Assembly (NCBI GenBank): GCA_020137815.1
Contig: CM035357.1
Location: 310,001 to 374,000, forward strand
Length of the DNA stretch: 64,000 nucleotides
Reading direction: 5' to 3'
Source: Hormiphora californensis
Lineage: Eukaryota; Animalia; Ctenophora
In this document: in pieces, positions 1 to 39,428 of the stretch
Position numbering within the stretch: the first letter of the stretch is position 1
Layout of the letters: each line of letters starts with the position of its first letter
Translations under genes and position numbers: made by a program
Notes under the pieces: model-generated
Seen by the model: only the letters and a program-made list of their open reading frames with translations
Database searches by the model: none
Told to the model about the DNA's origin: nothing

Positions 1-165
1 ACTAACACCTCTAACACCACCACCACACACTGTTATTTAGTCTCTAACATCTCTAACACCACCTCTTCTGCCATATAGCATCCTATCTATCCAACCCTAC
101 TAACACAACTCTAACACATAATATCTAACACCACCTCTTCTGTCTAGCATCCTATCTATCTAAAC

Positions 166-679
166 ATGCCACCAGCTGGACGAGGAGGAGAGGGTGGAGG
201 CCGAGGAGGAGGCGGCGGTGGAGGTGAGTTAGCTGACAAAACCGATCTTTTATCAGAACCCACCAAAGATTCAGAGTTGCCTTCTACCAAACCACCACCA
301 GCATCATCACCCATGCCACTTATGTCAGGGGAAAATGATCCTCGACCCCAGCACCCCTCATGTCACCCTCCTGACCAGTCTCACAAGCTTTTTACAAGAC
401 ATAATGCAGGTAGCTGTTTATTATAGACAGCTACCCCCTGTTTGCACCCGACCCTGTTCCACACTCAGTCACCCCTGCCTATAGTTTGTACCCGATTCCC
501 TTGTGGGTTCAAACTAGACAACACTGTTACCCCTGCACTCCTCTAAGACACTCATCATTAGAAGTTCGTTGTCATAAAACCACGCGATCTCACTTTTGTA
601 GTAAACCCTTCCGCTAAATCATGAATTTCTTTCAGGTCACGGCCACGAAGAGGAGAAGGGATGCTGTATCATCTTGTAG
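166..679 (+). CDS. 33-aa Gly-rich micropeptide ending GCCIIL (CaaX), two exons 166-223 and 636-679
   Basis: Phase-1 intron GTGAGT...TTTCAG joins in frame to give MPPAGRGGEGGGRGGGGGGGHGHEEEKGCCIIL*. It shares intron phase and tail with the neighbouring unit. An AG at 146-147 means it could instead be a downstream exon pair of a gene starting before the window. Confidence 0.7.
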
Positions 680-1199
680 ATCCAATCAAGTGATTCAATC
701 GAATCCTCTGGTGATCATTCAATCGGATCGAGAATCTGTGTGGCTTACACCGCTCTGTGAGGATTCGGAACACGTCCGATGTGAACACAAAGATTGAATT
801 CGGAGTGAAACAAGGCAATTTTAGAAGTACTGTAGAGTGACATGGACACTTCATTGCTCTGGTGTGATGTTTTGATGTTTTGATATTTTTGTTTTTCGTA
901 AGATTATATTTTGTTTCAATCATCCTTTGAAATTCCCCGAAACTCCCCAATAAACCATCTGAATGTCCACTGAGTGTTGAGCCTTCTTTCTCTCGTCCAG
1001 ATCCAGCTCCCAATTTTCACTGCCAAGCCTTCTGTCCCCACCTCAATCCTGAGCTATTCAGAAGCTTGTTATAACCCAATCAATCCCAAAGCAATGTATA
1101 ACTCAACTTCTCTTTTCCAAGTCTTCCAGCTCCCATAACCGACCCAATCTTAAGCTATTGTATAGCTAATTTAACCATCACTCTCTCATGTTTAGCATA

Positions 1200-1490
1200 A
1201 TGCCAGGCGCCAGTAAAGAAGGGAGTAAGGCGGGTGATAAGGGTGGGGAACCCAAACCTGCTGGCGGATCACCCAAACCTGAACCAGGTAACATGATTCG
1301 ATTTTGTTAATTTCCCTCAGCCAGAAGCTGGGTAAGAAAGCATGTTTTTGGTAGTAATTACATTGAATTTAATCAATGCTTTCATTTCCTCTTTGAATTA
1401 GAATTGTTAGATGCTAGCCCTCTTTTCGTTGCAGGTGCCCCGGGAGGACAAGAGGAACCCGCTGAACAAGGATGTTGTATCCTCCTCTAG
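1200..1490 (+). CDS. 47-aa Pro/Gly-rich micropeptide ending GCCILL (CaaX), exons 1200-1287 and 1435-1490
   Basis: Phase-1 intron GTAAC...TTGCAG gives MPGASKEGSKAGDKGGEPKPAGGSPKPEPGAPGGQEEPAEQGCCILL*. Confidence 0.75.
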
Positions 1491-1923
1491 ATATCTTCTA
1501 GATTGTTCTATAATCTTCTAGATCCGTCTAGAATCATCTAGATCTCCTCTAGATCCTTCCGTCTTTTATATTTCCCATCCTGAGTCCTGTTTTCTTGGAA
1601 CTGGGGTGGGTGGTACAGCCCCGGTACAGCCACCGTGGTTGTACATCACATGTAGAAAATATCTTCCTCTGATCCCAAAAGAGATAAAACACAACTATCC
1701 ATTGAGATTACTACTCGCATGAAACAGCTGGACTGATGTCAGAACTGTAGATATTTTGTTTCTTTGTTTGTTGTCAGTGTTTTCAGAGTACAGCAGAGTT
1801 TATTATGATGAAGCATGAATATATTAGGGCTTAGGCTCTGTTTTCAATTTTTTGACCACAGCAGAATTCGAGTTATTTTTTTTACGAAAAACATCCTTTC
1901 TTTCTTTGAAACACATTTTCAAA

Positions 1924-2043
1924 ATGCCTTTCACAGGTCCAGCGAAAGCACCGTCTCCGAAGGCCGAGGAAGCCCCTCCTCCTCCACCTCCCCCTCCTGA
2001 GGAAGCTGAGGAAGGTTGCTGTAGCTCTTGTACTGTACTGTGA
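1924..2043 (+). CDS. Pro-rich segment ending EGCCSSCTVL (CaaX); own 39-aa ORF or alternative last exon (1937-2043) of the 1200 gene
   Basis: Reads MPFTGPAKAPSPKAEEAPPPPPPPPEEAEEGCCSSCTVL*. TTTCACAG|GT at 1936/1937 is a phase-1 acceptor matching the other two terminal exons. Confidence 0.65.
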   Translation: MPFTGPAKAPSPKAEEAPPPPPPPPEEAEEGCCSSCTVL

Positions 2044-2541
2044 TGTGTAGCTGAAACTCCTATGGAGTAAGCCATTCTGTCTTCTGGTGAATAAATCTGA
2101 GTTATAGCTGATCTTGGTTTCTGGAATCTGAGTTATTATAACTCCTGGCTTCTGAATCCTGGCTCCTGGATTCCAGGACCTGGAATCTATCTGAGTTCTG
2201 CATCCAAGTTGGCAACTGTTTGGATGTAGAATATTGTTTAGTGACAGCAGGCTGTCACATTATTATATCTCTTCGATCTGTTTTGGGATTGTTATAACTT
2301 CTAAAAAGGCTGGTCTGCATAAGTAATGATGAAATATTTGTAAGTTTTTAACACATTCCAATCCGCTGCAAAGTTATTTTCTATCACTGACACACACAAA
2401 TACACAAACACACTGTACACATTTACACATAAAGGTGCCGCCCTGTATCCTGGGATCCAGTGTCATTTAAATATTAAACGTCTCACATGTCATCACGTGT
2501 CTCACATGTCACGTGTCTCACGTGTCAATGTGTCACGTGTC

Positions 2542-5500
2542 TCAAGTGTCATGAACAGGAATCTCTCCCATTTCCATTTCAGGAACGTGCCCCGACATCT
2601 TCTGTCCCCCAAGTGCCATTCCATCCTTCCCTCCATCCCCAGCACCGCTAGCCTCGTGCTCTCCCTCTTCTTTGGGAGGGGGTCCTATAGCCGGGGCAGT
2701 GGACACATCATATGTGGGAGGTCGGAGTATACCCGGCTGGAGGAGCTGATCCATTTGTTTCTGTTTGATTCTCTTATTGAGCATGCCACCACCCTTCTTA
2801 GGCTGGTTTGAGTGGTTGGAGTGGAAGATGTCCAGTCCTTTCTCAAGGTTGGAACTACCCACCAGCCAGTACGTGTCTACTATTGTATCATCCTGCAAAA
2901 TGTATAGAATATTAATTACTAATCACTGATTTTCGGATATTTTAGGTCTTGCTTACTTAAGTGCAATTTTTCCCCGGCTGTCTTTGGCGTACGAATTTTA
3001 CCAGGAGAAGGGGCGAACAGGAGCAAAAAAATCACAAATTACAGTGGACGAAATAACTAAATAAATAACGTACGATCTTGAACTGTCCTCGGAATAGTGT
3101 TTCAAATATTCCCGTGTCAGCCAAGAAGTTCCTCGTGTACTTGGTTATTAGAATTCTCATCGCTGGAAAGGGAGATCTATTACGATGTTATAGGAGTTAT
3201 TATTTCTATGCTACATATTAAAGATCAATCAATCAATCAAGTAGGTGGAGTCTCGGGTAATCGTATTTTCGTTACCGTTTGACCCGGTAATTATCCAGCA
3301 TGGTAATTATACTAATTACACCACTAATTACACCTACCCTGTGATCGTTCCTCCATGGCGGTTGCCATGTTGACAGTCTCCCCAAACACACAGTACTTGG
3401 GAATCTTCATCCCGATCATACCAACAGACACAGGCCCAGTGGCAAGACCGATCCTTAGTTTCACCTGAAATGAGACGATATTATTTGACCAGATTTTGAG
3501 AGATTGATATCAAAATCTGGTCAACTAATGGTGTTTTATTACAGCTGCAAATTTAGGACAAACGTTTAACTACATTAGGTAAAACTAACTAATGTTACTG
3601 GCCTAAAGGGTAGATCTATAATAACTCACCTCACACATGCTCTCATTTTCATGATCCAGGTTGTTCAGCTGACCCAACATCTCCAAAGCTAAATGTGCGA
3701 TATTGGTTACACTCTCGCTGGTAGCCTTCGTACCACAGGTGGGCAGTCCTGTCACTGCAACGTAGGCATCCCCAACAGTATCCGCCTAGAGGAATGGTGA
3801 ATGGATTAAAATTGGAAATCAAAATATATCAAACAATTAACTTGACATACGCTGCTGCAGTCCCCTGTGGCCGTCTAAAACGTGTGCAAATTAGGGGACT
3901 GCAGCACATGCAAAACAGTAAACCTGAAAACACACACATTTCAACTACACTCACTTTGAAGGCCTCATACTTGTCAGTTAGTTTATCGATCAGACAGAAT
4001 AGGTAGTTCAGCAGGTTAACGACCTCAGTCGCAGAGTGGTAGGAAGAGATCAGAGTAAAATTAACTATGTCCGCATACAGAACTGAAATGGAAAACATGG
4101 GTCATAACTTATTATAAGCTTCTTATACATTGTTATATCTCTATAATTGAATGGCATAGTCAAGGGATATGTGATCTAACTGAATTTTAAATAACTAATA
4201 ATTATAAACGCTACCATGTACTGAGGATATAATTCAACATGAAGAATGAAGATGATTGTTACTCACCGGAGACAGAATCAAATATCTCGGGAGTGACGGG
4301 AATATGGTTCTTCAGTTTTTTAGCAATGTCCGCCGGGACAAGCTTGTAAATCAAATCATCTGATCTCTTTTTCTCTCGACATAGCACCTCTGTCAACTTC
4401 TTTAGTTGGATCGTGTTTTTAGTTTGTACCTTAACCAGTGAGTACGTCTTGTCTGAAAGGGGTGGTTCAGAGTAAGTGCAGTAACCATGACTACAACTGT
4501 AACCATGACAACCATATCAACTCTCATGTAACCATGTAATGGGTTGGAGGGGTATTGGTTCTGGTTTCGTACCAGTGATGCTATGTGTCTAATGGGTGCT
4601 AGTACTAACGAATCTACAGTTACCATGACAACAACATGGTAACCATGACAACTCTCTAACTTACTGATGTTAGCCCAGAACAGGAAAGGTTCAACAAGTG
4701 CGATGAAGATCAGAGCTGACATGGTTATTCCAATGAGAATGTTAGCATTCCTCCTGAAGTCGACAATATTGTTTAACATGGCCCTTGCCAGAATGTTCTG
4801 AACCGTCTTCAACTGCTCGTTATACAGGTTGATCACTAATTGGGGGATAATTAATTATTCAATTAATTAATCAATGGAAACTTAGTTTACATTCTTCTTT
4901 CTATCATCATTCGACTTCACTTTCAAAACTGGACCCCTAGTTCATTACAAAACATCAAAATCCCAGGGGTTGGCCGTCAAAACCACTGTGGGACTGTGTG
5001 CGCATGCCAAATCCAGCTGGGTTTAATGATTGTGATTGGAAGTAAAACAACATGACTTCATATGACGTCACACGAGATATGACGTTATAAATGACTGGTG
5101 AACGAGCCAATCGGAGGCCTGGATTTCGAAATAAAGGCTCACGCACACCGTCGTGACGTCATAATTACCTGCAATCCAGTTGATCCCCATAGATTTTGAA
5201 GCCTCCAAACTCTGATTATTCAAGATCCGATACCGGTGATTTCTAAGTAACTCAATGGCGTCAGACAACCGGTCTGTGTCAGTTTTCAAATCAGGAATAT
5301 ACATGAGAATCTTGGAGAAGCAGTAATCCTCAACCGCCTGGTTCGCTACCATCAGCTGTACTTTTTCAGCATCGGCATAACCTGCAAGAACCGCGATAAT
5401 TAGCACCAACATGTTCCTGCATAATACACACCCCGCTGTGCGATGATTGGAATGAAATAATGAAGGGAAGAAAGAAAAGTTGTAAAAGATAGTCGACTAT

Positions 5501-21900: not shown

Positions 21901-24900
21901 CGTTCAAAGATCGTGCAAGATTGTTGATTTAACAAAATTTCGACCAAATGAACTGGCGATTTTATCACTTTTAAGTGCAAGATGTGGTGTAATATACCAC
22001 TGGTATGTGTTGCAGATGGTATGTGTGTTAATATGAAAGTTTTATTGAAATAACACCGCCATTTCCCTGATCTTCTCGGAATTTACCCGACAGTTATAAT
22101 TATAGCATCTAGTTATAACATCATGATGGGTACATGCAGTATATATTGGTGAGACCAGCTTGAGAAAGTGGTGCAACGATCGCAATTCCTAGCCATCTTA
22201 CCACCTCAAATTCTTGCCTATACTGTACTGCTTTACCTGCTGAAACCTACTTACTAGATCTCAAGCGTGTGACGTTTAAACTGTTATACCACCAAATTAA
22301 CAAACCTCCATAATTTGTTAATAATTTTTTAGTAAGCTTCCCTTAAATTATCCCCTATTCTGTTTAGGAAGTTACTTGATGAAGATTGGTCGGACCTGAG
22401 TGAGGATGAATCAATGTAAGTACATTTGTGATAATTTCTCTATAACTTGCAGTATATTGAGATTCGCACATAACAATTCCTTTATGACTGCATATACAGA
22501 GCTATATCAATTTGAATTAGAGCACACATCAGCAAAGTTTTCTAAAGTTTTGAAATCTCTACTCAAGATCCAGTAGCTACTATTACCAGTAAGATCCAGT
22601 AGTCTGTAAAACACATTATCGAGTTTTCGTGCTGGAAACTTTCGGAAGTTGTCTCTCTTTGTTCAGATTTCACACCTTTTTTCAGTTGCATTGCAGGTTT
22701 TGTCTAAAGCCCACAAAATCTAAACTACAGTCATATCATAGCACCATGCAGCTACATTGCATCTTGGATTCCGTGCAAATCTGATCATACTCTTTGTCTT
22801 GAAAACAAAAAGTGTTATCGGGTGTTTCCAGCAGAAACCCGCTAAATCTCTGCAAACTCTATTGACCACAGCTTTTTACCACCCCTCTCTCACACCTCTA
22901 GATGATGTTATAAAAGCCGGCGCAATACTTTATTTCTCCTCATTTTGCACGAACCTCTGAAGCACAGACTGAAGCCCACTTTCTCTCCCCAGCAGACAAC
23001 AGAGGTGAGTACCTGTATCTGTGTCTAGTATATATGAAAACTGTTATTTGAATGGTGATTGGTGATCCTCGAAATATAGCCGTTTGAATTTTATAAACTT
23101 CTCTGCACCTGATGTCGCGTATAAACTATACACCACCTATTATAGCTATAGACCTGATTCAATCTATGGGATATTTACACATGTTCAGTTTCCAGCTGCG
23201 TTAACCAGTCTTACGTTACACTACCTCTGTTTAGATCACCTCAGCTCTTTAGAAACATTTCATTGAATTGTTGAATAATACTACCTCCAGTACCATACCA
23301 TACCTATACCACCATCTCAAGTTGTGACCCAGCTGGGCAATGTATCAAATTCACTAGTTCCCACATGTGTTCAACATTATTCACGTGTGCTCATGTCTTG
23401 TTTCACAGAATTGTCAGTCAGTGTAGAAATGAAACATTTGAGAACTCTATGCTTTTCATGCAGTTTTGCAGCGTTTTTCTTTGCACCCAGCGGTCAAATT
23501 GGATGTGTTTACTGTTTCTCGTCGGAGAAGTTGTTTAGATTATCTCGTGTGAGCTCCTTCCAGTTACCATGGCAACCATGTTAACTCCCTCCCCTACAGG
23601 GATCATACCATGGTAACCATGTTAACTCCCTCCCCTCAGGGATCATACCATGTCCTCTGAGGAGCGAGCACGGTTAACTGCTCCCCCAGTTACCATGGTA
23701 ACCGTGTTAACTCCCTCCCCTGCAGGGATCATACCATGTCCTCTGAGGAGCGAGCACGGTTAACTGCTCCCCCAGTTACCATGGTAACCGTGTTAACTCC
23801 CCCGCAGGGATCATACCATGTCCTCTGAGGAGCGAGCACGGTTAACTGCTCCCCCAAACTCCCCCAGTTACCATGGTAACCATGTTAACCCCCAAACTCC
23901 CCCAGTTACCATGGTAACCATGTTAACTCCCTCCCCCCAGGGATCATACCATGTCCTCCGAGGAGCGAGCACGGTTAACTGCTCCCCAGTTACCATGGTA
24001 ACCGTGTTAACTCCCTCCCCTGCAGGGATCATACCATTGTAACCATGCTAACTCCCCCCCCCCCCAGGGATCATACCATGTCCTCTGAGGAGCGAGCACG
24101 GTTAACTGCTCCCCCAGTTACCATGGTAACCATGTTAACTCCCTCCCCCCCCCCCAGGGATCATACCATGTCCTCTGAGGAGCGAGCAAGGTTAACTGCT
24201 CCCCCAACTAAGGCCGATGAAACTACAATCCCCAAAGCGTTCTTCAACTTCACTGTGTGTATTGTTGCGTCAGCCCTTCTCAGTATACCATATGGATTCG
24301 ACAAGACAGGTAAATCAATCGGCTGATAAATCTTCTGTCTCAAATCGTCACTGAATCTCGACCTAATTGACATTAAATATATTTCTACCACAGGTTGGTT
24401 AGGAGGATTGATATTGTTGCTGATGGTGGGAGCCCTGGTGGATTATACCCTAATCTGCTTGGGTGAGACCTGTATGAAACTCAACATCTTCGACTACCAA
24501 CAGATCGCTGAGGTAAGTTAGTTGGTCTTAGCTTTAGGAACCTGAAATACTGAGTCGTCTTGGTCTTTCTGGGGGTGGTTTGGATCTCACTGTCTGGCGG
24601 TACCGATCCAATCTGAGGCCTGAGCGCACTGTCACACGCTCAGATTAGGGCCTGGCATCGCCAGACAGGTTTAGATGAGAGATCGGATTTTTTTTTAAAG
24701 GGCCTAAAAACCCAAATTTTATTTATTTATTTTGAACACTACATCGTAACAAGCATGCTATTGGAGTCCCAAAAAACATAGGTACACGCCCCACGGACCC
24801 AAAGTGAGCCCAGGGGGAGCCCCTCAAGTTGGGGCCCAGTTGGGGTCCCCTTGTAAACGCGCTTGTACTCCTTGAAATGCTAACAATATGATCCTCTCTC

Positions 24901-30674: not shown

Positions 30675-33600
30675 TTACGTCAATAGATTATCATCAAATG
30701 TAGAATTCTCTAATATATGTGCTACTAGCATTCTGAACTTGCGTTTCACGTTTTTGTCTTGACAAAATATTAAGGGGATACGGTAGTTTAATTCGTAGAT
30801 GGCTAAAGAACTGAGCTCCTGTCTTAGAGCAGACACTGCCCCTGCAGATACACATTCAAATAGTTTGTGGTAAGATGAGTCGGGCAACAACCCACACTCT
30901 AGGCATGTCGGAACGGACACCGTGCTGTCATGCTGCAGATACCGGAACGCAAAGTTCTGAAAACGTAGATTATGACCGTGAGTGAAGTCGATAATCGCCA
31001 TAGATTCTCCTCTACTGAGAGCTCGATGGAGAAGAGGGGTGAGAACAACTTCCCTTGTGTTGACCAGTCTTCTCAAGTCCTCCACCGTGTGACTAGGTTC
31101 CAGCGTATATTCATCGGTTTTGAAAAGGTGTTCCATTTGTTGTTTGACGGTATCATCCCACAGTTTGTATCCGTAGTCGTCTATTTCTCCTTTGGTGTAC
31201 AATAGCTGATCTCGCTCATAGTTTATCAAGTCACATCTTCTGAGAAAGCTCCTTCTTCTCGTAGCTGCCGGAACATTAGCATCTGTACTCTCCTGATCCT
31301 GGTCCTCCACCCATCGGAGATAGCATTTGGTCATGGTTAGATGATGTGCGAACTTATGGTACGGTTCCGAGTCAATTTGTAGAAGTTTGGCACTGATGCT
31401 ATCCTCAGCTAGCAACCCTTTCAGCACAAATTTGATCGTCAGAATCCTCAAGGTGACTGCAAGAGGTGGTACTGTTGTGAGAAGGTCTCCTATCATGTTT
31501 GGGACATGAAACTGACTTCCCAGGATTTTCAGCTTGGCTCGAGCCATGAGGTCTTTAAAGCTTGATATCCGGTCTTCCAGCCAGAGAGGGGCCGCGTATA
31601 GTAGCTTCGTAAGCACCACTGTTTTGAAAAGTAAAGCCAACGAAGTACTATTCAGTCCATCCGTTCTAGTTGTGGATGTCGAGAGTCTACTCCATGCAAA
31701 CCAGCATTTCTTTAAGGTAAAGGACGCATGTTGTTGAAAGTTCAGGTCTTTGTCTAGGTAAACGCCCAAAACCTTGCTGGAATCTGCATATAAAATTTCT
31801 TCATTGCCGAGGTAGAATTTTGGAAGTACTGTCGGTGGTTCTGATCTTTTAGGACGTACAACAAGGATTTCAGTCTTGTCTTTTCCACAGTTCACCACCA
31901 GCCGCCAAGTCCTACACCATTCGTGGATGTATTGTAGTACTCTTTGCATAGATGATTCACATTCTTTGTCTGTACCAGTGATAACTACAGTTCCATCGTC
32001 TGCAAATTTGAATGTTTCAGTGTGGTGACGAATATCAGTTGGTAAGTTTCTCGTAGTCAGAAGATCTCCGATGTAAAGGATAAATAGGAGAGGCGAAAGT
32101 ACTGCTCCTTGTGGTAATCCTGTGGTTCCACAGATTCTGGCTCGTCCCACCTTTCCGTTTATCTTCAAACTGACCAATCGGTTGCTAAGCATAGAATGGA
32201 GTAACTTCAGGATTCTGCCATGTACTCCTAAGCGATGGATTTTGTAGATGAGGAGAGGAATCGGCACACTGTCAAAGGCCTTCTCGAAATCTATCAGCAA
32301 AAGATAGGCGGTTGCCTTTCTCCTACGGTTTTCATGTAGAGTTGCCAGCATTCGGTATAGATATCGAGTACAGCTCCGGTTTGGTAGAAATCCTTCCTGT
32401 TCATCTTCGAGCAACGTTTCGCTATAGCAATGGTCCCTCATTCTTCGGTCTAACACCCTCTCAAAAAGTTTACCGATGTACATACTGATGGTGATAGGGC
32501 GGAAAGACCCCGGTTTGAGATATGAGCTCTTTCCTGCTTTCTTGATGAAGGAAACCGTTGATGCTCTCCAGGGCCATACTGAACACTTCAAACACAAATC
32601 GAATAACTCGGCTAGAAAGTTTACTGCCCGACCTCCCATATGTTTCAGAGTTCTCGGGTGAACCCCATCTCCATCCGCTGCCTTTCCACTCCAATCCTGT
32701 GCTGAGATCGCCTGTTCCACTTCTCTTCGTTCCACTTTGCTATTCAGTAGGTTCTCCTCTCCAGGTTCCTCGTCCGTTAAATCCACTGACATGATGTCCT
32801 CCACTTGCCTGCATATCCGCCTGTACTCCTCTTCATCGAAGTCCCTGTTCTTGAGGTGTTCCCCTTCAAAGTACGTCCTAAACAGTATATCTTCTTTTTC
32901 TGATTGACTGTGTTTCAGGGTGCCTTCAAAATCCAAACACCCTATGAAATTTTCCTCTTGGGCCAAGAACAATCCTCTGTAGCGCTTCCAGAAAAGATTA
33001 CTGTCGTGCACATTTAACCCTTGAAGTCGTTCATGTATCCACTTGTTCTTACTCTTAATCAGCGTCTCCTTGAAGATGGCTTTCGCTGCTTCCACGAGTT
33101 CTTTATTCCGAGTTGTTCGCCTGAATTGATAGTGTCGTAGAGCTCCTTGGAGATTTTTTGATAGTCCCGACAGTTCATGTGTCCAGAATGGTTTGCTATA
33201 TCGACAGATAGTCTTCTTCGAGATGAATAGTTCACATGCTTCTCTATGTATCCTCAGAAACTCCTTGTACAAGTCCTCTGGATCTTCAGTTCCACGTATT
33301 TCCGGAAGATGACGCTCCAAAAATTCCTTCCACTCGTCCCACTCTGCTTCCTCGTAGTTGAATACCCTCTTCCGCTGTATGTGTTTATTGACCTGACCAA
33401 TTGTTATGTGTACTGGTTTGTGTCCTCGATCCGGCGCTCCAGTGAACAGACAAAGCCCTTCGTCCTGATCGACCCAAAGTCCCCTAAGTGGTCCAGAGTT
33501 GCCAAATATCAATGTTAGATCTATGACACTACCTCCTCCAGCGCATAGAAACGTATTCCTCATCGGTGATAAGATCCGGGCCCCCTGCTGGTTACAAAAT

Positions 33601-34070
33601 GTCTCTAGTAGATGACCATTGCTGTTGTAAAGTCTATCGCCCCAAGCTTGTCCTCTCGCGTTAAAGTCCCCCATGACTTGGAGAGTAGCAACCCCGTTTG
33701 CATAACAGTATCTCCAAGCCTCTTGAATGGTGCTCAGTAGTCTGCTGAGGTCCGACGACGGGCTACTGTATACCGAAGCATACATCACAGGTCGCTTTGA
33801 AGGTGTTGCAATCACGAAAACAGCTGCAACACCCTTTACTTCTAAACTGGGAATTCTCTGAGGATAGAACGACTTATCAACCGAGATGGTGACACCTTGA
33901 TCGTCTGCAACTCCAAAAGTTCGTAGGTTTTTGAAAACGTCCTCGTTTGGTACCGTACCGGTTTCCTGCAGTGCCAGTACCGTGATGTTTCTATCGGAAC
34001 AATAGTGGTCAATCGCTGTACTGGAATGAGAAGAGAGGCCCGAAATATTTAGTTGACAGATACTAACCAT
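30675..34070 (-). CDS. LINE ORF2: APE endonuclease, reverse transcriptase, C-terminal CCHC
   Basis: QLNI.G, LQET, GDFNA, IDL, DRGH (APE); FRPI, IDFEKAFD, GLPQGAVLSP, FADD, LGV (RT); CLECG...HKLFEC. First ATG at 34070. Confidence 0.95.
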   Translation of the reverse strand: MVSICQLNISGLSSHSSTAIDHYCSDRNITVLALQETGTVPNEDVFKNLRTFGVADDQGVTISVDKSFYPQRIPSLEVKGVAAVFVIATPSKRPVMYASVYSSPSSDLSRLLSTIQEAWRYCYANGVATLQVMGDFNARGQAWGDRLYNSNGHLLETFCNQQGARILSPMRNTFLCAGGGSVIDLTLIFGNSGPLRGLWVDQDEGLCLFTGAPDRGHKPVHITIGQVNKHIQRKRVFNYEEAEWDEWKEFLERHLPEIRGTEDPEDLYKEFLRIHREACELFISKKTICRYSKPFWTHELSGLSKNLQGALRHYQFRRTTRNKELVEAAKAIFKETLIKSKNKWIHERLQGLNVHDSNLFWKRYRGLFLAQEENFIGCLDFEGTLKHSQSEKEDILFRTYFEGEHLKNRDFDEEEYRRICRQVEDIMSVDLTDEEPGEENLLNSKVERREVEQAISAQDWSGKAADGDGVHPRTLKHMGGRAVNFLAELFDLCLKCSVWPWRASTVSFIKKAGKSSYLKPGSFRPITISMYIGKLFERVLDRRMRDHCYSETLLEDEQEGFLPNRSCTRYLYRMLATLHENRRRKATAYLLLIDFEKAFDSVPIPLLIYKIHRLGVHGRILKLLHSMLSNRLVSLKINGKVGRARICGTTGLPQGAVLSPLLFILYIGDLLTTRNLPTDIRHHTETFKFADDGTVVITGTDKECESSMQRVLQYIHEWCRTWRLVVNCGKDKTEILVVRPKRSEPPTVLPKFYLGNEEILYADSSKVLGVYLDKDLNFQQHASFTLKKCWFAWSRLSTSTTRTDGLNSTSLALLFKTVVLTKLLYAAPLWLEDRISSFKDLMARAKLKILGSQFHVPNMIGDLLTTVPPLAVTLRILTIKFVLKGLLAEDSISAKLLQIDSEPYHKFAHHLTMTKCYLRWVEDQDQESTDANVPAATRRRSFLRRCDLINYERDQLLYTKGEIDDYGYKLWDDTVKQQMEHLFKTDEYTLEPSHTVEDLRRLVNTREVVLTPLLHRALSRGESMAIIDFTHGHNLRFQNFAFRYLQHDSTVSVPTCLECGLLPDSSYHKLFECVSAGAVSALRQELSSLAIYELNYRIPLIFCQDKNVKRKFRMLVAHILENSTFDDNLLT

Positions 34071-35571
34071 GATGAAGATCGTTTTGATGGGCAGTATATA
34101 CTGGACAGGTTGTACTGTTGGAGTTGTGATTTCCACTGCAGTGGATACACTTGGCCTCGGCTTGACAGGGATCCGCTGTATGCGTGCTTACCCTCTCACC
34201 ACATTGAACGCAGGCCTCGTTGTTATTGCACCATGCGGTCCAGTGCCCGTATTTCCAACACTTTCGACATTGGAGCGGTTTGATCACCCGTCTGTCGATA
34301 TACTCACGTATACGGAAGTGCCTTGTGTCTATGTTTAGTCCCATAGTTATAGCCTTATTCCTCAGATCTTCCGATTCAAAGATTAGCCGTACAGAGTATC
34401 TTGGGTTTCCATTGTTATCAGTGAATCTGTAAACTTTTGGCGTTGTTCCCAGTTCTTCCGAGCAGGCTTCCATAATCTCAGTATCAGAGACTTCTAGAGG
34501 AACATGATCCATAACTGCCTTTTGACTCGGACCTGTGTTAGCGAGGATGACGGCTGAGGTTTTAGTCCCTTCACCCCCAAAGAATTTAGGTTGCCACCCG
34601 TCAACTACCTTATGTGCATCTGCAGGGGATGTCAATTCTATAAGCAATGAACCCCTAGTGGTAGGTTTAAATTGGTCTACTGGCATGTTAGGATAGTTTA
34701 AATTAAATTCAGTCAAGATTAAATGTCCCTGTGCTAAATATCTACTATAATTAACCACCCCTCTCACTTGTACAGTCCGTTTTGGATCACATCTCGACTT
34801 CCCTACTTCTCTCGTTCCCTCAGGCATCTTAGGCCTCACCGTTCCACCGATTGACTGTCCCATGGTGTTCACTCTTCCGGCATCTTGCCATGTTGAATCA
34901 TTGGCTGGTTCACTGATCGGGACGTCCCTGCGACGGGCTGGGCTGAATGTTACATTGTTTGAGCTCACAGCAGATGTTGTACTAGCAGTGTTCAAAGGAG
35001 GAGTCAAGTAACTCTTGTTCAATGATTTACCGACTTCCTCTACAATATTGGTGTTTATATCGGTAAGAAACGCGGTAACTTTGCCTATCATGGCCTGCTC
35101 AAAGTTTTCTAAACGATCGTCCAATATCTTCTGGGTAAGTACAGACGGTTCGTTGCTCATACTCTTAATAGTACAGTTCAGTTCATCGTCCCTACAGCTG
35201 GGACAAAACCATGCTAAACCCTCGTATTCGTTTATCAGCAAACAGGTTTTATCATCATCTAGAACGGCAGAACAGTCACTATTTCGGCATGTTACAGTAT
35301 ACTCGCCATTGATGGTTGACGGGGCATTAGATGCCTGCTCATGTAGATCGTCCAAAAGTTCAAGCGTGAGACAGTACGCACTCCTCAATAACTGTAGTAT
35401 ATCAGTACGGCTGGGCTTGGAAGACGGGGGATTTGGTGATCCCTTGGTGACAAAATTCATTAACCCTTTCTGTTCAACTGCGGCTTTCAACGCAAGAAAT
35501 CCATCGTGGGTGTCTCGAACAGTTTTCATATCGGGGTTATCCTCCCCGTTCTTCTTTTTCGTTTTAGTCAT
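34063..35571 (-). CDS. LINE ORF1: gag-like with triple CCHC knuckles and partial PHD-like N-terminal Cys cluster
   Basis: QCRKCWKYGHWTAWC..CVQCG..H..C..CIHCSGNH..CP; CRNSDC...WFCPSC. Confidence 0.9.
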   Translation of the reverse strand: MTKTKKKNGEDNPDMKTVRDTHDGFLALKAAVEQKGLMNFVTKGSPNPPSSKPSRTDILQLLRSAYCLTLELLDDLHEQASNAPSTINGEYTVTCRNSDCSAVLDDDKTCLLINEYEGLAWFCPSCRDDELNCTIKSMSNEPSVLTQKILDDRLENFEQAMIGKVTAFLTDINTNIVEEVGKSLNKSYLTPPLNTASTTSAVSSNNVTFSPARRRDVPISEPANDSTWQDAGRVNTMGQSIGGTVRPKMPEGTREVGKSRCDPKRTVQVRGVVNYSRYLAQGHLILTEFNLNYPNMPVDQFKPTTRGSLLIELTSPADAHKVVDGWQPKFFGGEGTKTSAVILANTGPSQKAVMDHVPLEVSDTEIMEACSEELGTTPKVYRFTDNNGNPRYSVRLIFESEDLRNKAITMGLNIDTRHFRIREYIDRRVIKPLQCRKCWKYGHWTAWCNNNEACVQCGERVSTHTADPCQAEAKCIHCSGNHNSNSTTCPVYTAHQNDLHHG

Positions 35572-36261
35572 GGTTTCTGCCCTTAGGGGCGGCTAGTGGG
35601 TCGCCATCCTAAAACTCAAATTAAATTGGGAAAGCCGGGTTGACCGGTTCAACTTTATATAAGAAATAAATCAGGTTACACAATCACTATATACACATTA
35701 AATTGGTCATTAGGACTATAAAAGTAATAAGTTAGATTATAAGGTTAAAATCATTGTCAAAAGAATTAAATCGGGTAAAACAGTTTCCTCTGTACCCCCT
35801 TATTGATATCAGCGGAAATTTTGTCATATCGGTTAAGCGCCGCGCAATAAAGTACGCTGCATATTGACGCAGCGCAGCTTATTCTTGCGCGCGCGTCGAA
35901 ATTTAGCAGCTCCACACACACACGTCGCGTCGCGTTCTTTTTGCTCAAACTTTTTTAAACATCGTCTGGAGTCGTGTCACTGGTAAATTGTACAACCATT
36001 CTTGCTGTGTCTCTCTCCCTTATCTCCGTGTCCAAACACTTGTGGTACACTCGCACACATGTTACTTTCTCGAATATTTTTTTGTTACATTTTTGCATTT
36101 TGCACTGCTTGAAATTTGAATCGCTACCCCCTTTCTCTCTTTGACAGCTTCTCCTCGGCTGTTGCAACTTAATGGTGTTGGGGTGCTTTCTATTTGAATT
36201 GCAACTACTTTCTAAAAGTTACTTTTACCTACAGAAAAGGTGATAATGTAAGTTGCTTTCA

Positions 36262-37440
36262 ATGAACATTCTGCTTCGAAGGAGCCCTACCCTTGGGTCT
36301 ATTCCCGTGAGGTTTTGTCAACACCGCCAGTTACACAGATCTGTTGTTACCGGGGAAGAAGTCCAGGCTGGCTGTGAGAAACTTCCCGAGTTAACAGCAT
36401 TCTGGCCCTTTCACCTGTGGCCCTCAGACGTTACAGCAACGTTAGTTGACACCTTTCAACAGAGTTCAGGGTTGCCGTGGTGGGCGGCTATCTGTGTAGC
36501 GGGGGCAGCAGTTAAACTTCCCATGTTTGGGTTTAATATCTACAACTACCGGTCTGTTCAGCAGTTTGTTACCACACAGCCCAGGGTTATGGGACATTTT
36601 GTTATGACGTACCTGAACAACCTAGTGACAAAGGGGGAACACCACGCACTGAAGATGGCTAATAATGAACGGAGATTTACTATACTAAGGGAGGGGATGA
36701 ACGCTGAAGTATCAATGAAAGCCACGCTCCGAACACATATATACTATCTTCCTATTTATTATCTAGTGGGAGCCCACCTTGCCATGGTTACTGGATTAAT
36801 GTGGCTAAACAAGATACAGTATGTACCACTAACACTCGCCTCAACTCCCTGGTCCTCTGCAGTTGATCTGACTATTAGTGATCCTTCTCTAATCCTCCCT
36901 TCAATATGTCTAATAGCAGTTGCAGTTCACCTCTACTTCCACCCTCTAACTCACTTCCTACCTGTACCCTCAACCAGGACCCTTCTCTCCCCATCCTACC
37001 TCCCCCTCCTCGCCCCTCCCCTTATAGTTGCCTTTACTACCCTCTGCAACGTCCCTTCTGACATCCTTATCTACATAATCAGCACCACGTTAACTTCCAC
37101 GGTCATGGGCCTCTCTCTCCGACACGATGCTGTATCACGTGCTGTGGGCCTTTTATCAGGGGGTGAGGTGATGAACAGACTCCTTCCCCCTGCTGCTACT
37201 ATCAAAGAGTTTAGTGTGACACTCAAGAGACAGGATCTTTTGTTGGAACAAAGGGATCAGCAGCTGTTGGAAGCAAAGGAGAGGTTGTTATTGAAGGAGC
37301 AGGGAGAGAAGGTTGAAGAGTTGGTGTCAGGTCTAGAGGATGATGAACTAAAGAAGTTAGAAGATGAGAGGGATGTTCGATTTGTTAAAAAGACAACGCT
37401 TTCCCCCGCTTTGAACGTGCATAAAAAGTTCGATGTTTAG
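36262..37440 (+). CDS. Oxa1/YidC-family mitochondrial inner-membrane insertase (OXA1L or COX18-like), intronless
   Basis: Basic presequence-like N-terminus, GLPWWAAI, DLTISDPSLILP, further TMs, charged helical C-tail (favours OXA1L). Confidence 0.85.
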   Translation: MNILLRRSPTLGSIPVRFCQHRQLHRSVVTGEEVQAGCEKLPELTAFWPFHLWPSDVTATLVDTFQQSSGLPWWAAICVAGAAVKLPMFGFNIYNYRSVQQFVTTQPRVMGHFVMTYLNNLVTKGEHHALKMANNERRFTILREGMNAEVSMKATLRTHIYYLPIYYLVGAHLAMVTGLMWLNKIQYVPLTLASTPWSSAVDLTISDPSLILPSICLIAVAVHLYFHPLTHFLPVPSTRTLLSPSYLPLLAPPLIVAFTTLCNVPSDILIYIISTTLTSTVMGLSLRHDAVSRAVGLLSGGEVMNRLLPPAATIKEFSVTLKRQDLLLEQRDQQLLEAKERLLLKEQGEKVEELVSGLEDDELKKLEDERDVRFVKKTTLSPALNVHKKFDV

Positions 37441-37628
37441 ATATCTTATGACATGATTGTGTTAACTTATTTTTGTTTTTTATCTGCTTTTTTTCTATTG
37501 AACTCTGTTTGTTATACTATCTCACTGCACACAAATGAACGGTTCAACTTTTCTATCGTTCTCAGTTTTGGTCACACTAAAAGCACTTATCCCATATTTT
37601 AACACGCTCCCCCTTTTTCTCTCTAGTT

Positions 37629-39428
37629 ATGTCATACACAGGTGGAGGTGGTGGCTACTATACACAGCAACAACACAATGGTAACCATAGTTACAACAGT
37701 GGTAACCAAGGTTACAATGGTTACCAACAACAATACTCCCAATACCAAAACACGGCAGCAGCTCCATCAGCCCAATACAGCTATCAGCAAGGGGTTGGTA
37801 CAGTAGCCGGTACCCAACAGTACAACAATACAGTAACCGCGGCACAACAGTATAACAACACTGCCGCAACACAGTATAACAACGTGTCAGGGGCTTACCA
37901 AACACAATACAATATGGCTGGTGGAAGTTATGATTCGTATGGTCAGCAATACAAAGCAACCTACGATCTACCGCCCTCAATCCACACGGACCCTTCCTTC
38001 CACAACACTCAATACGCAGTGCCTCGAATGACCAACAAGCGGAAGAAAACCAATTACACCGGAGCTGCATCTCGGACATTTCCAGTTTCATCCGGCACCC
38101 ACCACAAACGGTCAAGTGAAGGATTCGTCCCAAAGAGAAGTAACACGATTCCCCCTGCTGTGGTATCTCGACTTGCTCTCGCTAAATCCAAACTAGAGAT
38201 AGACCCAAACAGTCACCACGCACAGAACGAACTGGCGGAGGCTATGAGTGAGTACCACGCGTTCCAGGAGCAAAAGGAGAGCGATTTGTTGGCATCCGCC
38301 CAGCACCAGATGGAGGCAACAGGTTACACCGGACCGGGGTTGTTTACTGGAGAGGCTCTTGTAGCACCGATGGACAAACAAGAGTTAGATTCGAATGATG
38401 AGCGGACTTTTGCACGTCCTGACATGTTCCAAAACTTGAAGCCTCTTCGTGAGAACTTCGGGAAGGTTCTGATGCGCAAATACGGGTGGAGGGAGGGGAA
38501 ACCTCTTGGGATGAGTGGGGTTGGGTCCCTGGCTCCCATTGAACTGACGGTGAAGGTGGACAGGAAGGGGTTGATGGACTCCATGGAGTATGTAAGGAAG
38601 AAACCGGAGGGGGTCAACAAGAACGAGGGACCAGCCTGGATCTGTAAAGTCGTGAATCAGAAGAATGCAGTCTCTGGGTTAGGTGAGCTACACCAGTCTC
38701 TAGGGATACCTACACCAGTATACAAGCTAGTGAAGGACACGGTGGGATGCTTTAAATGGAGTGTCAGTACTAACTGGGGGGCGTTCACAACACCCGGGAC
38801 AGGGATGAGGAGTAAGAAGCTTGCAAAGACACAATGTGCTTATAACGCCCTGAGGGAGATACTGAATATGGAGAGTGAAAGGCTGGGAGTTGAACCACCC
38901 ACCCTGGCTACCGAGTCTGATCCTTCCATGGCTGTGTTTGTACCGTCTAACAGGTCGATCGGGGGCAAGAGACTCCTGTATAAACACTTTTACAAGGCTG
39001 GTAACTTGGTGAATCTGTTGAAGAGGGCGGAACATGTCAAGTATGGGGAGGGGTGTGATTATGATAGCAATCTAGCACCACCACCCTCGCCCCCTACACC
39101 ACCACAACCAGTAGTAGACCCCTCCCCTGCTGCTCCTTCATCAACTGCAACAGAAACTAAATCTACCAAAGCAGCTAAAACTACAACCCCTCTCACAACT
39201 GGTAATTGGATGGCAGATGCTGTTAATGGTAGGAACGCCTGTAACGCACTACTAGCACTGTGTACCAAAATGTTTAAAGGAGCTCCGGAAGAAGTACACT
39301 CAATACATGAAAGGAGAACACTATATAACAGTTACAACCCCCGTGGGGGTCCTACACACCACCTGCCTGTAAAACCAAACCTGCAGTGCGGCTCAGAGCG
39401 TCTTACATGGCTGTCCAGGATATATTGA
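37629..39428 (+). CDS. SON: SON-like G-patch plus dsRBM protein with Y/Q/N-rich N-terminus, intronless
   Basis: PGLFTG...GKVLMRKYGWREGKPLG...G...PI....KVDRKGL...KNAVSGLGEL...KKLAKTQCA follows the SON C-terminal arrangement. Confidence 0.75.
   Translation: MSYTGGGGGYYTQQQHNGNHSYNSGNQGYNGYQQQYSQYQNTAAAPSAQYSYQQGVGTVAGTQQYNNTVTAAQQYNNTAATQYNNVSGAYQTQYNMAGGSYDSYGQQYKATYDLPPSIHTDPSFHNTQYAVPRMTNKRKKTNYTGAASRTFPVSSGTHHKRSSEGFVPKRSNTIPPAVVSRLALAKSKLEIDPNSHHAQNELAEAMSEYHAFQEQKESDLLASAQHQMEATGYTGPGLFTGEALVAPMDKQELDSNDERTFARPDMFQNLKPLRENFGKVLMRKYGWREGKPLGMSGVGSLAPIELTVKVDRKGLMDSMEYVRKKPEGVNKNEGPAWICKVVNQKNAVSGLGELHQSLGIPTPVYKLVKDTVGCFKWSVSTNWGAFTTPGTGMRSKKLAKTQCAYNALREILNMESERLGVEPPTLATESDPSMAVFVPSNRSIGGKRLLYKHFYKAGNLVNLLKRAEHVKYGEGCDYDSNLAPPPSPPTPPQPVVDPSPAAPSSTATETKSTKAAKTTTPLTTGNWMADAVNGRNACNALLALCTKMFKGAPEEVHSIHERRTLYNSYNPRGGPTHHLPVKPNLQCGSERLTWLSRIY

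Follow-up and report, generated by a model that had tools for sequence, protein, structure and literature searches.

A tandem cluster of three putative short coding units with Cys-Cys/CaaX tails in the ctenophore Hormiphora californensis

Introduction

Do three short reading frames that end in Cys-Cys/CaaX tails within 2 kb of ctenophore DNA encode stand-alone lipid-anchored peptides, or are they the tails of a larger gene? The question is raised by the left end of a 64,000-nt stretch of Hormiphora californensis DNA (assembly GCA_020137815.1, contig CM035357.1, forward-strand positions 310,001 to 374,000), hereafter referred to as the window and numbered from its first letter. Genes that are so short, spliced and low in complexity escape annotation and homology search. 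If these are real, several paralogous proteins in one animal consist of nothing but a spacer and a dual lipid anchor of the Ras type; what a hypervariable region does on its own could then be tested directly, and a simple motif rule would be available for searching other ctenophores. If they are instead the tails of one gene, they would form a three-way lipid-tail switch, which is of an already-known kind. The explanation that we favour, at about an even chance, is that two or three small paralogous genes encode unfolded peptides of 33–47 residues, predicted to be prenylated and palmitoylated and to reside at the cytosolic side of the plasma membrane.

Three Cys-Cys/CaaX tails are clustered beyond chance

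The cluster comprises three coding units on the + strand (positions 166–2043), each of which has a Cys-Cys/CaaX tail followed by a stop codon. The three tails that the first-pass annotation had reported within 2 kb, GCCIIL, GCCILL and GCCSSCTVL, were all present here and exceed chance. Two strict tail patterns, which were devised after the tails had been seen, occurred three times each in the 64-kb window, always within 679–2043, and not once in any of 60 simulated windows (order-3 Markov). A looser CC-stop pattern stayed at chance level (37 observed, simulated mean of 40). In a six-frame scan, 19 CaaX-like stops were listed, and the three Cys-Cys ones on the + strand all lay within 679–2043. 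The cluster is a real, non-random and unannotated-looking feature, and the splicing and translation of its units are predicted.

Exon structure and composition of the three units

Splice sites were scored by a crude model derived from 22 introns of three neighbouring genes, only 15 of which were frame-validated; seven of the training introns came from an MFS-like exon chain that gave no open frame. In unit 1, the first coding exon (166..223, +) has a Met-Pro start and a Gly-rich linker and ends at a phase-1 donor GTGAGT (score of 10.4), and its composition (GC 0.71, purine 0.76) departs from that of the upstream sequence (0.41 and 0.36, respectively). The last exon (636..679, +; acceptor score of 9.8) encodes an acidic patch and GCCIIL before the stop. 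The intron between them (412 nt, GTGAGT...TTTCAG, GT-AG, phase 1) would give a predicted product of 33 aa. An in-frame open extension (224..409, +), otherwise part of the intron 224–635, runs to an alternative phase-1 donor at 409/410 (score of 7.0), whose use would yield a possible isoform predicted at 95 aa. A likely poly(A) signal, AATAAA (949..954, +), lies 270 nt past the unit 1 stop and ahead of unit 2.

The first coding exon of unit 2 (1200..1287, +) likewise has a Met-Pro start, followed by a Gly/Pro/Lys/Glu linker with two PKP repeats and one SPK site, and ends at a phase-1 donor GTAACA (score of 5.8). Its last exon (1435..1490, +; acceptor score of 3.2) encodes an acidic patch, GCCILL and a stop, and the 147-nt intron (GTAACA...TTGCAG, GT-AG, phase 1) leads to a predicted product of 47 aa. 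No canonical AATAAA was found after unit 2. Both introns of the cluster fall inside the 77–1157 nt range of the 22 training introns. Unit 3 is an unspliced ORF of 39 aa (1924..2043, +), which has a Met-Pro start, an SPK site and an eight-proline tract flanked by acidic patches, and ends in GCCSSCTVL-stop; a likely poly(A) signal, AATAAA (2090..2095, +), lies 47 nt past its stop. The phase-1 junction that had been proposed before the last exon of every unit was therefore recovered as a GT-AG intron in units 1 and 2 and not in unit 3, where the G|GT at 1936/1937 sits inside the Met-started ORF and may be an exonic look-alike or an acceptor for another donor.

All three peptides are Met-Pro-started and Gly/Pro-rich, in agreement with the first-pass annotation (Gly+Pro content of 36–52%), and their net charge is −1 to −4. 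Outside the last six residues they contain 0, 0 and 1 bulky hydrophobic residues (units 1, 2 and 3), and therefore no folded domain is expected. Sequence shared between the copies is confined to a Glu-x-Gly-Cys-Cys core, and the linkers are unalignable. In the last nine codons, units 1 and 2 differ by 5 synonymous and 2 replacement changes, counted by eye, and an ATC/ATAT-like sequence directly follows the stops of both; the silent-change bias together with this shared sequence suggests tandem duplication. The exons are G- and purine-rich relative to their flanks, a shift whose onset in unit 1 coincides with the ATG (166) rather than with the acceptor (147).

Could the units be decaying remnants of a duplicated gene end, either untranslated or translated without function? 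The homologue searches without a result, the unalignable linkers and the lack of a canonical AATAAA after unit 2 would fit such decay, but we judge it unlikely: none of the three units has lost its reading frame, start context, splice phase or tail, and the changes are mainly silent. Moreover, AATAAA was also absent within 450 nt past the stop in all four neighbouring genes checked, and for this reason its lack after unit 2 does not decide the number of genes either.

Gene starts, splice acceptors and a possible host gene

Acceptor-like sites are located 18, 4 and 59 nt ahead of the ATGs of units 1, 2 and 3, respectively. The site before unit 1 (125..147, +; score of 4.1) is composed of a branch-point-like CTAAC, a pyrimidine tract and TAG, and is likely a trans-splice or 5'UTR acceptor as judged from its sequence. 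Before unit 2 (1110..1195, +) there are sites at 1129 (score of 9.4), which is unusable as a coding entry because an in-frame stop comes after it, and at 1195 (score of 1.9). All three units carry A at −3 and CC after the ATG, a dinucleotide that follows only 71 of the window's 2162 ATGs. Of its 1281 pyrimidine-rich YAG sites, 12 are preceded in frame by ATG-CCN at a distance of no more than 12 codons. Among five neighbouring genes, whose start codons are themselves predicted, four have a YAG 1–13 nt ahead of the ATG and the fifth has one 27 nt ahead, with an ATG in between. Acceptor-like sites just ahead of ATGs, in the cluster as well as in four of these five neighbours, are as expected under ctenophore spliced-leader trans-splicing; in Hormiphora, at least 56% of long reads carry a spliced leader according to passages of PMC8527503. 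The 5' ends of the units would then be made by trans-splicing at the acceptors ahead of each ATG. A 46-nt degenerate duplication (60–174, +) spans the acceptor before unit 1 and gives rise to two acceptor copies, at 78 and 147.

The same region can be read in another way, in which a larger gene starting left of the window, encoding for instance a GTPase of the Ras/Rap kind or some other CaaX protein, uses at least one of the units as an alternative exon for its C-terminal hypervariable region; those units that have their own ATG could be nested in the last intron of such a host. We hold this to be rather doubtful, though several features point to it. Positions 1–147 resemble the 3' end of an intron, phase-1 AGs are common to all three units (175, 1206 and 1936), and the phase-1 acceptor at 1936, inside the unit 3 ORF, is among the best in the region (score of 9.6, on a par with true acceptors; top 1.2% of + strand AGs). 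In addition, the EGCCSSC of unit 3 is identical at 6 of 7 positions to residues 174–180 of Rap2b, EGCCSAC, as given in a passage of PMC11401852, parallel nested genes are described as common in Hormiphora (excerpts of PMC8527503), and Cdc42 alternates CCIF and CVLL tails by splicing (text in PMC9868626).

On the other hand, if the units were host-gene tails, an in-frame Met-Pro start with A at −3 would have to have arisen by chance three times. The first-AG coding entries of units 1, 2 and 3 have phases 0, 2 and 1 and are therefore not compatible with one shared upstream donor, which argues against a single upstream host gene. The strongest acceptor ahead of unit 2, that at 1129, is moreover no possible coding entry. 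The phase-1 acceptor at 1206 scores 0.5, lower than 21 of the 22 acceptors used for training, and a competing AG precedes it by 11 nt, although the model scores of the rival entries are nearly equal (4.1 at 147 and 3.8 at 175; 1.9 at 1195 and 0.5 at 1206). No G domain was found in positions 1–2043, and the Rap2 hypervariable region is 14 residues long in the part of PMC4159233 that describes it, as against 35 here. Longer proteins carrying the unit 3 tail gave four candidates, none at E<=10, a weak result since the collection lacks this species.

We thus return to small genes of their own as the preferred reading, and stand-alone short products seem probable to us. The lengths of 33–47 aa put forward for a family of stand-alone peptides hold, and separate genes are favoured over host-gene tails as a prediction, whereas the earlier count of three spliced units was overstated, since there are perhaps two genes, one with alternative last exons. 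In this simplest middle model, the donor of unit 2 may choose between 1435 and 1937, giving 47 or 64 aa. Unit 3 would be a separate gene or would serve unit 2 as an alternative last exon, in the latter case with two palmitoyl sites replacing one. No first exon with an ATG plus a donor was found between 1490 and 1924. A candidate microexon at 1321–1331 was rejected, as it would be 11 nt long with a 33-nt intron, compared with a minimum of 77 nt among the training introns.

A predicted dual lipid anchor on a short spacer

All three units end in Cys-a-a-Leu-stop (CIIL, CILL and CTVL). Prenylation of a CaaX box is followed by trimming and then by methylation. The chemistry invoked in the first-pass annotation, geranylgeranylation directed by CaaL and palmitoylation of an adjacent Cys, is well grounded in passages of three sources (PMC11152559, PMC9927470, PMC11401852). 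GGTase-I acts on CaaX boxes that end in Leu, Ile or Met; in a reporter, CIIL and CTIL remained prenylated when farnesyltransferase was missing, and the passages concerned show no test of CILL or CTVL (PMC11152559). In Ras2, the first Cys of CCIIS is palmitoylated and required for plasma-membrane rather than internal-membrane location (a passage of PMC9927470). In Rap2b, the two adjacent Cys of EGCCSAC carry palmitate, and palmitoylation of C176/C177 is needed for its plasma-membrane location, according to the relevant text of PMC11401852; the protein is also stated to be geranylgeranylated (PMC4159233, in part).

The sequence layout of a palmitoyl-Cys plus CaaX anchor, as looked for in alternative tails of the Ras/Rap kind, is present in the units. 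The CC-aaX of units 1 and 2 has the layout of Ras2 CCIIS as quoted in PMC9927470, and the tail of unit 3 has the CC-x-x-CaaX layout given for Rap2b in PMC11401852, whereas, in contrast to both proteins, the units have no GTPase domain within the window and their tails follow predicted Met-Pro starts of their own. Units 1 and 2 would bear one prenyl and one palmitoyl group, and unit 3 one prenyl and two palmitoyl groups. The palmitoylated neighbouring Cys would trap the peptides at the plasma membrane, and since they are acidic and have no polybasic second signal, they would rely on reversible palmitoylation. The linkers would then extend into the cytosol and present short motifs from the membrane, in the manner of CYSTM/CYSPD proteins; this proposed display is the weakest step of the scheme. 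Candidates for display are the polyproline tract of unit 3, which may bind actin regulators of the profilin/EVH1/WW type, and the SPK sites (units 2 and 3), which we take to be proline-directed phosphosites. This role has no conservation behind it, because the linkers are unalignable.

Peptides that scarcely exceed the recognition site of an enzyme, one of them mimicking the Rap2b anchor (unit 3), might alternatively serve as decoys, keeping GGTase-I or DHHC palmitoyltransferases occupied at the expense of Ras/Rap/Rho proteins. This appears very unlikely to us: a decoy would need very high expression because prenylation is irreversible and catalytic, and distinct linkers would be superfluous. 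A synthetic EGCCSAC competitor did not reduce Rap2b palmitoylation in the passage at hand, a weak argument, as that peptide has no CaaX (PMC11401852).

Comparison with a-factor precursors and other small lipid-anchored proteins

The first-pass annotation had also offered a-factor-like signals as a role. In this explanation, the units would be precursors of exported lipopeptides, which are prenylated, cut at the N-terminal side and released by an ABC transporter. Their length of 33–47 aa, tandem copies and CaaX ends agree with a fungal search rule for ORFs of <100 aa ending in CaaX, as worded in part of 10.1101/2021.09.28.462209, and two Sordariomycete a-factor precursors shown in PMC10569646 likewise start with Met-Pro. 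Fungal a-factor precursors are also very short CaaX-ended ORFs missed by annotation, as sections of PMC10569646 relate. Nevertheless, three tests failed. The Asn expected 5–20 residues before the CaaX Cys under the same rule (10.1101/2021.09.28.462209, in part) is absent from all three short forms, while the possible 95-aa isoform of unit 1 does have one; X is Leu, of the geranylgeranyl type, in all three instead of a small farnesyl-type residue; and the copies have acidic, non-identical residues ahead of the Cys, where a near-identical mature peptide would be expected. Moreover, an adjacent palmitoylated Cys keeps proteins at the plasma membrane (a passage of PMC9927470). We therefore consider the export of such precursors quite unlikely.

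A 45–64-aa 'putative Leotiomycete a-factor' family is similar to the units in its extra Cys, and it ends in CTVM/CTIL and is not mating-type specific (PMC10569646). Compared with this family and with fungal a-factor as portrayed in the relevant sections of PMC10569646, the units have no Asn cleavage site, GY motif or Ser/Thr-rich N-terminus, carry Leu at X, have acidic rather than hydrophobic residues before the Cys, and belong to an animal host. Fungal short CaaX proteins with an extra Cys and no clear mating role have been published already, as passages of that source indicate (PMC10569646). A hidden ctenophore family of 33–47-residue lipid-anchor-on-spacer genes, some of them released as a-factor-like lipopeptide signals, strikes us as improbable. 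Such peptides would be among the smallest dually lipidated animal proteins, and if some were released, fungal-style lipopeptide signalling would exist in the earliest-branching animal lineage. Among the roles that had been proposed, the membrane tether fits best; the signal did not withstand the three tests above and the decoy found no support.

G-protein gamma subunits have a helical GGL domain of about 55 residues ahead of the CaaX; no Pfam match of this kind was obtained for the units, and they hold only 0–1 bulky hydrophobic residues. Leishmania is, like ctenophores, a trans-splicing organism. Its HASPs, encoded in a single gene cluster, are hydrophilic plasma-membrane proteins that are rich in repeats and doubly acylated (excerpts of PMC3491706), but they differ in being longer and N-terminally myristoylated and palmitoylated, and the likeness is one of architecture with no sequence relation claimed. 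Closer in working are the CYSTM/CYSPD proteins (yeast Cpp1–3), which according to passages of PMC10840359 are small, rich in Pro, Gly and Glu towards the N-terminus, and held at the plasma membrane by a lipid anchor on C-terminal Cys without a transmembrane helix. In the same source, CYSTM proteins are 60–150 aa long with 5–6 conserved Cys and a palmitoylation anchor, whereas the units are 33–47 aa long with 2–3 Cys and a CaaL box (PMC10840359). The units share the character of a small Pro/Gly/Glu-rich protein (G+P of 0.36–0.52, acidic), though below 60–150 aa. None has 5–6 Cys, and six translated pieces gave no match at E<=10 to the Pfam CYSTM entry, which we take to be PF12734. The best reading is that the cluster peptides resemble CYSTM/CYSPD proteins in working and are not members of that family.

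Homologue searches

The protein collection searched lacks this species (none of seven exact look-ups succeeded), and the queries were short and of low complexity, so that blanks carry little weight. For unit 3, a word search near its own length gave no candidates, phmmer against 1.84 billion representatives gave none at E<=0.001, and the ESM Atlas gave no usable match; the PDB returned a single polyproline match (E 0.46) and Pfam only matches at E 0.56–9.1. Units 1 and 2, queried as unspliced pieces in Pfam and by exact look-up, gave no homologue, and Rfam had no matches on positions 1–3000. Literature listings showed no report of ctenophore short CaaX peptides, and the supplements of ctenophore genome papers may list such genes.

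In metagenome contigs, an exon of a neighbouring gene gave 375 pattern matches, none of which was confirmed, while a degenerate tail motif was found at 21 loci, with EQGCCILL in 11 of them. Six of these loci were read base by base. As a family the 21 loci were rejected, because five belong to a bacterial intergenic repeat, four have TGG instead of a stop and others lie off-frame in long ORFs. The repeat (L004, L008, L011, L013 and L016) shares 20 nt that read EQGCCILL-stop in one frame, which makes it a trap for CaaX scans. Only one locus looks like a eukaryotic last exon: at L012:931-998 (+), a eukaryote-like acceptor (score of 7.0) precedes a short Pro/Gly/Ser exon that ends in EQGCCIIL-stop in phase 0, and we treat it as a lead only. 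Low ORF cover was also seen at L001, L005 and L010.

Neighbouring genes and elements in the window

Outside the cluster, its convergent neighbour is a membrane guanylate cyclase-like gene (2542..5412, −; 8 exons, 483 aa), whose stop is about 450 nt from the AATAAA of unit 3. Its extracellular part is very short, and the stretch from the transmembrane segment to the HNOBA/cyclase domains showed no kinase-homology domain.

A SLC38-like transporter gene (454 aa, family assigned by eye) has its acceptor-plus-ATG region tandemly repeated several times (23565–24206, +), which would provide multiple alternative starts. On the opposite strand, a LINE-like element (30675–35622, −) contains a 502-aa gag-like ORF and a 1131-aa endonuclease/reverse-transcriptase-like ORF, with domains named by eye, and the ctenophore spliced-leader 3' motif AATTTGAG is located 44 nt ahead of its first ATG. 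The element may have arisen by retroposition of a trans-spliced RNA or may be one that targets leaders; the 8-mer AATTTGAG occurs 7 times in the window, so its presence ahead of the LINE-like ORF may be due to chance.

Finally, an OXA1-type gene and a G-patch/dsRBD (SON-like) gene lie 189 nt apart (36262–39428, +). The latter is intronless, with an acceptor 2 nt ahead of its ATG, and among its 106 matches there are 8 close relatives at 36–50% identity, of which the only one with a name comes from Mnemiopsis leidyi, which makes a ctenophore origin of the window likely. The two genes are fused in one Mnemiopsis gene model, and they form a candidate conserved operon-like pair.
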